Positions 9,336 through 10,495 of a DNA stretch of 21,890 bases are shown in pieces. The translations under genes and the position numbers were made by a program. The notes below the pieces were generated by a model. The model did not search any database. It was not told where the DNA came from and saw nothing but the letters and a program-made list of their open reading frames with translations. Positions within the stretch are counted from its first letter, which is position 1; the number at the start of each line of letters is the position of its first letter. The stretch comes from a virus (taxonomy: Duplodnaviria; Heunggongvirae; Uroviricota; Caudoviricetes), in IMG/VR virus record IMGVR_UViG_2529293041_000014. One strand, 5' to 3'.

Positions 9336-9857
9336 ATGGGAATAACTAAAGAACGATTGTTGGAAATAGCAAACCTTAGTGATTGGGCATTAAGTGATGA
9401 GAGAATTGTTTCTCCTCATGCTTATGAGTCAGTTACAAGTATAGAAATAACAACAATGGCTAGAATGCTGCTTGGTTATTTCAAAATAGAAAATAAAAAA
9501 CAGATGGATAGTAATGTTGATATATGTGAGATTTTAGACGATTGGGGGGCTTGGGTTGTGGCTGGTAATAGTTCTATTGATTGGCAGGAAATAGCTGATA
9601 AATATAAAAATGTTGTTCCTCATGGTAAAAAATCACGTCGTCAGTGCAGCAATGATGAAGGGCGAATTATTGACATTAGTATCCTTAGGTTAGAAAGATA
9701 TAAGCAACAAGAATATGAGTTAATTGTTGCTCATTTCGTGATTGGTTTATCTCTTCGTGCTATTGCAAAGCAACAAGGATGTTCAGATGGAACAATTCGT
9801 AAAAGATTGCAAAAAGCCTTAGGTTTTTTGACTGGATATATAGCAATTACCAGTTAA
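9336..9857 (+). CDS. HTH DNA-binding protein with C-terminal sigma-70 region 4-like helix-turn-helix; candidate regulator of the adjacent AT-rich operon
   Basis: ATG at 9336 with GGAG RBS (ORF track starts at GTG 9324); C-terminal LSLRAIAKQQGCSDGTIRKRLQKALGFL resembles sigma-70 region 4/ECF-type HTH; AT-rich codon usage unlike the flanking phage genes; stop overlaps the stop of the convergent nuclease gene. Confidence 0.5.
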   Translation: MGITKERLLEIANLSDWALSDERIVSPHAYESVTSIEITTMARMLLGYFKIENKKQMDSNVDICEILDDWGAWVVAGNSSIDWQEIADKYKNVVPHGKKSRRQCSNDEGRIIDISILRLERYKQQEYELIVAHFVIGLSLRAIAKQQGCSDGTIRKRLQKALGFLTGYIAITS

Positions 9858-10495
9858 GAGTCAGCGGTTTTTTTACCAGTGTAATGGTATAAGGATACTC
9901 CCATGTGTCTTACATGATATGGAAGCGCTGTTGCTGGATGCTTTGTGATACTCTTAAAGCGGAGGGGAGAGCCTTCCGCTTCAATTTCTGCGTCCGAAAC
10001 GGTCGTAGAGAAAAATTCTTTCCATTCATTGAATTTTACTGCTGATTTGTCAGACTTTATATAAATTAGAATTCCTCCATGATCGTCACGTGACGTACCC
10101 GTGCCGTAACGTTCGGTTAGCTGAATCCAGCCATTATGAATAGATTTGGGGCCTCTCCATAATTTTGCTTCACCGATCCATTCGAATTTTCCGAATTGAT
10201 GTTTAACTAATAAATCAACGTGACCGCCATGTTGAGTATCATGTTCAACATCATAAAACCTACCTTTCAGGAAATTTTTGATCGACGCTGTTAGCTCGTC
10301 CTCTCCCCACTTAGCATCTTGATAGAAGTGTTTGTCATTTTCTAAATTCTGAATAGCGTCGTCTAAATCTTCATAGAGTTGCTTTACAAAAATATTTTTG
10401 TCTGCAGCTAATTTTCTTTGAACCATTCCCCTAAATTCAGGATCCATTCTAATTAATGATTGAAGGTCTGCAGTACAGATGTTTACATCACTCAT
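9854..10495 (-). CDS. Predicted PD-(D/E)xK-family nuclease (213 aa), third gene of an AT-rich three-gene operon
   Basis: Motif GGHVDLLV...FEWIGEAK (D94, E109, K111 from Met 10495) fits the hhhD-x(n)-hxhExK nuclease signature; 8-nt overlap with the upstream gene; ORF track offers a longer start at 10558. Confidence 0.5.
   Translation of the reverse strand: MSDVNICTADLQSLIRMDPEFRGMVQRKLAADKNIFVKQLYEDLDDAIQNLENDKHFYQDAKWGEDELTASIKNFLKGRFYDVEHDTQHGGHVDLLVKHQFGKFEWIGEAKLWRGPKSIHNGWIQLTERYGTGTSRDDHGGILIYIKSDKSAVKFNEWKEFFSTTVSDAEIEAEGSPLRFKSITKHPATALPYHVRHMGVSLYHYTGKKTADS

Follow-up and report, generated by a model that had tools for sequence, protein, structure and literature searches.

The DNA analysed here, 21,890 nt of the IMG/VR virus record IMGVR_UViG_2529293041_000014 (Duplodnaviria; Heunggongvirae; Uroviricota; Caudoviricetes), is referred to in full as the window, and all coordinates are its own. 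The gene under study, at positions 9336 to 9857, is rightward-transcribed and is, on its profile matches, a long-form homologue of the Q21/Q933W family of phage antiterminators, with a core like region 4 of sigma factors and an N-terminal extension of 57 amino acids (aa). This gene, the long Q, probably anchors an exchangeable slot for inverted cargo genes, mostly of anti-phage defence; in the window, the slot is filled by a leftward operon of three genes (A, B, and C). The long Q may regulate the occupant of the slot. It belongs to the backbone of Rac-type prophages in Escherichia coli and Salmonella, where it forms the left anchor of the slot; the slot is a mobile-element defence hotspot, and the A/B/C operon is an unclassified tenant of it. 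The elements that carry this finding are the following:

9336 to 9857, plus strand: long-form Q-family gene of 173 aa, an open reading frame with a GGAG Shine-Dalgarno sequence, RefSeq 'antiterminator Q family protein' WP_000513135
9740 to 12167 (approximate), unstranded: exchangeable cassette of the 3' third of Q, the cargo operon, and the promoter with its 12-mer, as set by homology limits
12058 to 12087, minus strand: predicted leftward cargo promoter, with -35 TTGCGT (12082 to 12087), an 18-nt spacer, and -10 TAAACT (12058 to 12063)
12078 to 12089, plus strand: invariant 12-mer GCGTACGCAAAA (palindrome GCGTACGC plus an A-tract), a putative Q-binding element found at 122 of 125 loci

The architecture of the slot is evident from 108 further loci, fetched from genomes and viral contigs with an alignment of long and short Qs as the query. 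Among the 125 evaluable loci, the 122 exact copies of the 12-mer lie on the Q strand, 605 to 2973 nt past the Q stop codon, and the 94 distinct Q-to-12-mer intervals are filled almost wholly by one to three minus-strand open reading frames. They represent 46 protein families, which sort by eye into at least 20 gene sets, and include KwaA/KwaB (Kiwa), PD-Lambda-5 A/B, ThsB-type TIR, and GmrSD proteins and DNA methyltransferases, as well as caspase-domain, RelA/SpoT, HEPN, and NA37 proteins. The association also holds in reverse, with a Q upstream on the same strand in 72 of 85 evaluable viral contigs that bear the motif. The 12-mer is single-copy in the window, and it is absent from six fetched loci without this Q type, including Q-less copies of the operon. 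Three loci of the QuuD type (L302, L327, and L334) are 'empty', with the Q stop codon 11 nt before the motif, leader, and terminator, and no cargo; the cargo is therefore inserted between Q and the motif.

The limits of the cassette fall within Q on one side and at hok on the other. Homology to long-Q genes with other cargos ends near gene nucleotides 401 to 410, and synonymous divergence along the gene, which lies between 0.13 and 0.35 at the 5' end, rises to >1 at the 3' end. One recombinant locus (L065) has its 3' part and cargo in common with the window and a different 5' part. The 3' third of Q thus moves along with each cassette, and exchange on the left takes place by recombination inside Q, in this third. 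The right exchange point in Rac-type prophages is the hok locus:

12146 to 12506, plus strand: hok/sok locus (Rfam sok), which in Rac-type prophages forms the conserved right flank of the slot

The Rfam sok match (117 bits) covers 12181 to 12356 and the hokD coding sequence 12351 to 12506; a promoter-like site lies at 12146 to 12174, and a strong terminator at 12574 to 12591, 3' of hok. In the neighbourhood of the locus, Rfam matched only sok and tRNAs. Homology to phage Rac-SA53 ends at 9334 and hok/sok homology begins at 12168, so that the Q gene and the operon share one variable block.

The assignment of the 173-aa protein to the Q family is based on several of its segments:

9336 to 9506, plus strand: N-terminal extension, residues 1 to 57, which defines the long-form clade (phrog_3323, E 1.9e-14)
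9519 to 9848, plus strand: Phage_antitermQ (Q21/Q933W) domain, residues 62 to 171 (PF06530)
9717 to 9824, plus strand: sigma region-4-like helix-turn-helix, residues 128 to 163, with the putative recognition helix CSDGTIRK (Sigma70_r4_2)

The PF06530 match scores 109.9 bits (cut-off 26; E 9e-32) and spans profile positions 3 to 112 of 118, and in PHROGs the protein matches phrog_79, 'anti-termination protein Q-like' (E 1.7e-34). Phage 21 Q chains (6P18/6JNX) are matched by phmmer over residues 67 to 145 (E 6e-4), with ∼25% identity to Q21 over 80 residues, and the core is ∼60% identical to annotated Qs of Stx1a phages, mEp460, and Klebsiella phages; the models of lambda Q (PF03589) and Q82 (PF06323) give no match to the protein at E ≤ 0.1. 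Of the regulator types that the first-pass annotation, made from the sequence of the window, had considered for this gene, the domain search thus places it with phage Q, in PF06530, as a homologue of the Q21/Q933W antiterminators. The C-terminal helix-turn-helix like that of sigma-70 region 4, noted at that stage, is confirmed by Sigma70_r4_2 at residues 128 to 163, inside the PF06530 match, at a score (24.9 bits) just below the 25.7 cut-off; the extracytoplasmic function (ECF) sigma superfamily model TIGR02937 is likewise sub-cut-off (E 3e-8). Only such region-4-type matches, all below cut-off, were obtained, and Sigma70_r2 does not match the 173-aa protein; as it has no sigma region 2, it cannot be a sigma factor. 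Residues C149, G152, R155, and K156 are invariant across the Q subfamily. Members of the subfamily in the protein database form two clean groups of 170 to 185 and 113 to 120 aa; the extension is kept in the long clade (P0001 to P0025), which is at least 64% identical over its full length and occurs in E. coli and Salmonella, and is absent from the short forms.

The 12-mer overlaps the predicted cargo promoter and covaries with Q. On the minus strand it reads TTTTGCGTACGC, and in the window the predicted cargo start is near 12051, leaving a 47-nt leader to the ATG of gene A at 12004. Of 51 distinct upstream sequence classes, 40 have a minus-strand TAnnnT 16 to 18 nt after TTGCGT (33 at exactly 17 nt and 6 at 18 nt; every other offset accounts for 0 to 5). 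On the plus strand, 38 of the 51 have a TAnnnT hexamer at offset 2, and 44 have one at offset 7. In all short-Q loci these plus-strand hexamers are followed by the leader GTTAAGAGTGGTYAC, an intrinsic terminator, and lysis or stx genes, and the unit of motif, leader, and terminator resembles a Q-dependent late promoter unit. Long-Q loci keep the 12-mer and the leftward -10 but not the plus-strand hexamers, leader, or terminator, and the hok promoter follows 60 to 110 nt on. Qs of the QuuD type, with the helix CSDGYIGK, are always paired with ACGTACGT, and those of the main type, with CSDGTIRK, are paired with GCGTACGC; the symmetric change from GCGTACGC to ACGTACGT coincides with the loss of an arginine from the recognition helix. 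We infer from this pairing that Q binds the palindrome of the 12-mer.

Two assignments in this region were discarded. One was the 12-mer as a promoter private to the three-gene operon, which is contradicted by its presence with every cargo type and its absence from Q-less operons. The other was a late promoter placed by eye at 8680 to 8760 in the Stx1_499 locus (L002), for which the motif, leader, and terminator at 8534 to 8623 are a better candidate. Comparison by blastn of the sequences downstream of Q in Stx1_499 and mEp460 with the window gave no late-promoter homology beyond the neighbourhood of the 12-mer. Two Erwinia loci (L053 and L054), whose Qs are 39 to 42% identical, keep GCGTACGCA with a varied A-tract (GCGTACGCATAA and GCGTACGCAATG) and have a related leader, GTGATAAGARTGGTCAC.

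It is conceivable, but rather improbable, that the 12-mer has nothing to do with Q beyond the slot that they share, and is a -35 or UP part of the cargo promoter, a host-factor site, or a recombination joint. The correct spacing of TTGCGT from a -10 in 40 of the 51 sequence classes is in keeping with this, as is the retention of the 12-mer where late-promoter features have been lost. However, an ordinary -35 element would not remain unchanged for 12 nt in different genera amid diverging flanks, and the palindrome shifts symmetrically, from GCGTACGC to ACGTACGT, with the recognition helix of Q. Empty loci, moreover, keep the motif without cargo or any leftward gene, and operon promoters outside Q contexts lack the 12-mer.

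The first-pass annotation had also proposed that the gene may be a dedicated regulator, or a sensor or anti-sigma-like partner, of the nuclease operon, with the overlapping 3' ends as a purpose-built control by transcriptional interference. Both stop codons do fall within one tetranucleotide, as it had observed:

9854 to 9857, unstranded: TTAA containing both stop codons (read from the sequence; 3-nt gene overlap)

The rightward gene ends ATT ACC AGT TAA, with its TAA at 9855 to 9857, and the stop codon of the minus-strand nuclease gene is the complement of the TTA at 9854 to 9856. The reported lack of an intergenic terminator is upheld by a consensus scan, which finds no intrinsic terminator at or near the junction, and by folding of the two strands there (z-scores of -1.55 and -0.04), and so is the AT-rich composition common to gene and operon (GC fractions of 0.345 and 0.365, with 0.46 and 0.54 in the flanks). 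The shared stop is nonetheless not special. Across 62 distinct junctions at related loci, Q and cargo are separated by -21 to +48 nt, and the 4-nt overlap, as in the window, recurs at 6 of the 62 with 5 cargo types; most other junctions have a short GC hairpin in the gap that resembles a bidirectional terminator. The shared TTAA follows from the tight packing of cargo against the Q stop and is no control device peculiar to the nuclease operon.

That the helix-turn-helix protein belongs to the nuclease operon has very little chance of being right, and comparative data have largely refuted it. The operon is co-inherited with the 3' third of the gene, gene and operon are similarly AT-rich, and pairing of a Q with the operon recurs in Stx1a phages and common E. 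coli prophages with close or overlapping 3' ends. But long Qs with 65 to 75% protein identity stand beside NA37-type and DUF6731-type cargos, at least 20 cargo gene sets occupy the slot, and the complete operon is found without Q or motif in Acinetobacter, a P2-like Klebsiella record, and Vibrio. In 30 other complete E. coli genomes, a long Q with 86% DNA identity over the first 400 to 410 nt occupies the same spot, after DUF977 and before hok, and is followed by inverted genes for a 477-aa and an NA37-like protein; other long-Q prophages have DUF6731 and 159-aa genes, and those of Salmonella have NA37 and 406- to 410-aa genes. Antiterminators of this family are also conserved in phages that lack the operon, where late regulation falls to a short-form relative alone; in SfII, mEp460, Klebsiella, and Stx phages, which carry other cargos, such a relative is the single Q gene ahead of lysis. 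The protein also lacks sigma region 2, and no anti-sigma-like neighbour of Q was found. The idea of a dedicated partner thus fails for a Q-family antiterminator that accompanies other cargos, with an operon that also exists without Q; of the proposed regulatory link, the part at the level of the operon falls away, and a possible link at the level of the slot, through the 12-mer, survives.

The position of the long Q in the prophage shows that it is a second Q. The window matches the Rac-type prophage adjoining ompW in E. coli O127:H6 E2348/69, with 100% identity over 8800 to 12400 and 99.87% over 1 to 15592, after which the two diverge. Downstream of the long Q lie the inverted operon, hok/sok, DUF968, RusA, and another Q, without adjacent lysis genes:

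14370 to 15059, plus strand: Q82-type antiterminator, the positional late regulator (PF06323, E 4e-90)

This gene follows DUF968 and RusA and precedes two tRNAs (15255 to 15494); in the E2348/69 reference prophage, the lysis genes are downstream of it, beyond the point that corresponds to 15592. The 173-aa protein is therefore not the positional late regulator, and the prophage has two Qs of different families. The late regulators of long-Q prophages with NA37-type or DUF6731-type cargo are of the lambda-Q or DUF1133 type.

The presence of this second, positional Q at 14370 to 15059 raises the question of whether the long Q is an orphan relic, left without a role after recombination brought 'Q plus cargo' from a short-Q phage. 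No long-Q locus has the late-promoter leader or terminator after its 12-mer, and none of 50,697 sequenced phage records contains the long form, its extension giving no tblastn match in them. The long Q is, however, under purifying selection. The ratio of nonsynonymous to synonymous substitution rates (dN/dS) between the window gene and other long forms is 0.25 to 0.37; by segment, it is 0.26 to 0.60 in the extension, 0.11 to 0.34 in the core, and 0 to 0.35 in the helix-turn-helix, and most pairwise comparisons of the three segments give 0.15 to 0.45 (extremes 0 to 0.60). The open reading frames are intact and form ∼25 protein clusters of 64 to 96% identity in E. coli and Salmonella, one of them in 393 assembly-collection blocks. 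Further points against a relic are the conserved Shine-Dalgarno sequence and start context (in the window, the ATG at 9336 is also the RefSeq start, with GGAG 6 nt 5' of it) and the invariance of the 12-mer within otherwise diverged cassettes. A long Q with no role left is thus decidedly improbable.

A role in antitermination at a middle stage, in which the long Q still loads onto RNA polymerase close to the 12-mer and carries transcription rightward through the hok terminator to DUF968, RusA, and the Q82-type Q in a two-step cascade, is unlikely. In its favour, the motif has the orientation seen in short-Q phages and lies ahead of rightward genes; the terminator after hok (12574 to 12591) is strong; the window has TAACAT 6 nt past the motif, and other long-Q loci have a -10-like hexamer within 5 to 12 nt (by eye); and no N-like antiterminator was noticed in the early region. 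Set against these, the offset-2 and offset-7 TAnnnT hexamers and the GTTAAGAGTGG leader, near-universal in short-Q loci, are unconserved in long-Q loci, other sequence takes the place of CTAAC, the upstream half of the short-Q site, and the hok promoter intervenes.

The reading of the long Q as the anchor, and perhaps regulator, of the slot suggests the following course of events. In the lysogen, the cargo would be transcribed leftward from a sigma-70 promoter whose -35, TTGCGT, lies inside the 12-mer. On induction, Q made from the early rightward operon would bind the palindrome; in short-Q phages, it would be loaded onto RNA polymerase at the adjacent -10-like elements, with read-through of the terminator into the lysis genes. 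The same binding would shut off the cargo promoter because the Q site overlaps its -35. Early transcripts that pass the Q stop would run antisense into the cargo, with no stop for them in the window, and convergent read-through between the Q gene and the operon is possible. With the leader and terminator gone from long-Q loci and lysis served by another type of Q, the long Q would be kept, perhaps mainly, for the cargo promoter or else for read-through, and it is most likely a regulator of one or the other, the read-through extending to hok and distal genes. More tentatively, and with the odds against it, a repurposed long Q could silence the defence system in the slot at lytic entry, as a form of self-immunity, with unterminated convergent transcription as a second layer and one and the same palindrome serving the divergent late and cargo promoters of short-Q phages.

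Several observations weigh against the slot reading or narrow its base. The loci are phylogenetically related, and their counts overstate the number of independent events; the co-variation of Q helix and palindrome is essentially one evolutionary switch between two lineages. One locus (L122) has a 60%-identical Q and no 12-mer within 7 kb. The rightward -10-like elements, leader, and terminator are not conserved in the window, and classical antitermination from the 12-mer is therefore doubtful there; the 12-mer could be kept only as a promoter element. Modelled with AlphaFold2 on an alignment of 29 sequences, the long Q gets a predicted local distance difference test score of 45.7, too low for use.

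The cargo in the window, the A/B/C operon (9854 to 12004, minus strand), is a candidate for an uncatalogued defence system:

9854 to 10495, minus strand: cargo gene C, PD-(D/E)xK nuclease-like, 213 aa (the RefSeq version has 197 aa and starts at 10447)
10488 to 10916, minus strand: cargo gene B, 142 aa (phrog_11490, E 8e-61)
10913 to 12004, minus strand: cargo gene A, 363 aa (phrog_12777, E 5e-147)

Gene C credibly belongs to the PD-(D/E)xK nuclease superfamily, with a restriction-endonuclease-like fold and a D...ExK motif whose D94, E109, and K111 are invariant in 33 homologues. Gene B matches no Pfam, PADLOC, or NCBIfam family, gene A has no Pfam, PADLOC, NCBIfam, or PDB match, and PADLOC-DB 2.0 yields a single match for the operon, between gene C and PDC-S54, which is weak (E 0.0016). 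Complete operons without Q and without the 12-mer are present in an Acinetobacter contig, among metabolic genes; in a Vibrio element, next to its integrase gene; and in the Klebsiella 'phage KP12' record, which has capsid-packaging and terminase genes nearby and a layout that looks P2-like. In Moraxella phage Mcat13, only a homologue of the nuclease gene was found, in an unannotated stretch and without the 12-mer. The commonest variant of the operon in E. coli lies behind a 128-aa short Q and adjoins a holin gene, with a 25-nt overlap of 3' ends; in the Stx1a phage Stx1_499, a divergent copy follows the Q after a gap of 30 nt.

Some further features of the surroundings are of note. Directly 5' of the Shine-Dalgarno sequence of the long Q, a GC-rich hairpin with a GAAA loop (GCCGCCC GAAA GGGCGGT) occupies 9307 to 9325; it is kept in long-Q loci of E. 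coli and partly disrupted in those of Salmonella. Its stability is not significant, its conservation is not strict, and, having no U-tract, it is no terminator. The open reading frame at 8645 to 8899, between DUF977 and a 103-aa gene (8892 to 9203), is marked in RefSeq as a pseudogene and has an internal stop. Phage Rac-SA53 (L004, 6485 to 8120) has, at the corresponding Rac position, an IS1 insertion sequence and a convergent pair of genes that overlap by 41 nt and code for a 192-aa 'CII-like' and a 365-aa 'beta' protein, without a Q homologue and without the 12-mer; the region before hok is thus variable even without Q. The 'CII-like' protein, considered as a counterpart of Q, was rejected as non-homologous. 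After 15592, where the window and E2348/69 part, the reference annotates an ISEc13 transposase; the window has a 523-aa open reading frame (15623 to 17194, minus strand) that we take to be an IS66-family transposase. The DNA therefore derives from a relative of the reference strain and not from that strain.

The gene first labelled as an operon regulator is relabelled here as a phage Q paralogue, which keeps the three-gene candidate system from being misdefined as one of four genes. A Q of this PF06530 subfamily with GCGTACGCAAAA or ACGTACGTAAAA 0.6 to 3 kb downstream provides a searchable signature, which delimits a slot for defence or moron genes in many Enterobacterales prophages; most of the ∼46 cargo families are uncharacterised, those of the A/B/C operon among them. 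If Q does bind the palindrome, this would account for the shut-off of a prophage's own defence cargo at induction, and the combinations TIRK/GCGTACGC and YIGK/ACGTACGT would be a natural specificity pair for the study of DNA recognition in the Q21 family. The Q family, the class of prophage defence hotspots, and individual cases of a gene placed between Q and lysis genes (nmpC in the K-12 annotation, for example) are already known. The limited literature searched holds no description of a general Q-anchored inverted slot, of its invariant palindrome across the cargo promoter, or of the long-Q clade, and a keyword search of a paper on Stx late promoters gave nothing on this Q subfamily.

Of the closest known systems, phage 21 Q (Q21; 6P18/6P1A/6JNX) has solved structures. 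It has a sigma-R4-like fold related to ECF sigma region 4 and binds a two-subsite Q-binding element beside a sigma-dependent pause element (10.1101/651190). The long Q is like it in its PF06530 match, its sequence similarity to the solved chain, and its sigma-R4-like helix-turn-helix, and short-form relatives are like it in lying upstream of a promoter-proximal -10-like element, a terminator, and lysis genes. Unlike Q21, the long Q has a 57-aa extension, is not located by lysis genes, and belongs to a locus without leader or terminator, and whereas the Q21 site consists of two direct 8-bp repeats, the presumed site of the long Q is an 8-bp palindrome with an A-tract. ECF sigma/anti-sigma pairs are comparable in that the C-terminal helix-turn-helix scores against ECF region 4, but the long Q has no region 2.

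The short Qs of SfII, mEp460, Stx1a/Stx2a, and Klebsiella phages have a 51 to 62% identical core, an identical 12-mer, and inverted cargo at the Q stop; they differ from the long Q in having 113 to 120 aa and no extension, in being the only Q of the phage, and in a motif that is followed by leader, terminator, and lysis or stx genes. QuuD (YbcQ) of the K-12 prophage DLP12 is 36% identical and has the same order of quuD, inverted nmpC, motif, leader, terminator, and essD/rrrD, although it is short (127 aa), pairs a YIGK helix with ACGTACGT, is the positional late regulator, and has a porin as cargo. In K-12 MG1655 (573956 to 577613; L253), the inverted cargo is the porin gene nmpC, disrupted by IS5, with ACGTACGTAAAAAA, the leader, and the terminator before essD. 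The DLP12 lysis cassette is reportedly under the control of a Q-like factor of that prophage (Rueggeberg 2013, cited in PMC7918800). If the proposed binding of Q is correct, the quuD-nmpC-essD region of K-12 would be a model for the whole arrangement.

The stx genes of Stx phages and the toxin cassettes of APSE phages are similar in being accessory genes between Q and the lysis genes; a 'variable length region containing toxin cassettes' is annotated under the match to the APSE Q gene. stx is expressed as a late gene, according to PMC6266700. In two Stx phage records, stx is on the Q strand and beyond the Q-proximal late-promoter region, whereas the cargo in the window lies before the site, is inverted, and has its own promoter. 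The hotspots of P2-like phages and P4-like satellites (Rousset 2022, PMC9122126; Vassallo 2022, PMC9519451) have in common with the Q slot a fixed position, flanked by conserved phage genes, and interchangeable cargo that includes known defence systems, and the A/B/C operon itself is also found beside the capsid-packaging and terminase genes of the Klebsiella record. Unlike these hotspots, however, the Q slot is lambdoid and lies between Q and its presumed target, its cargo is always inverted, and a 12-nt element common to all of its cassettes overlaps the cargo promoter.

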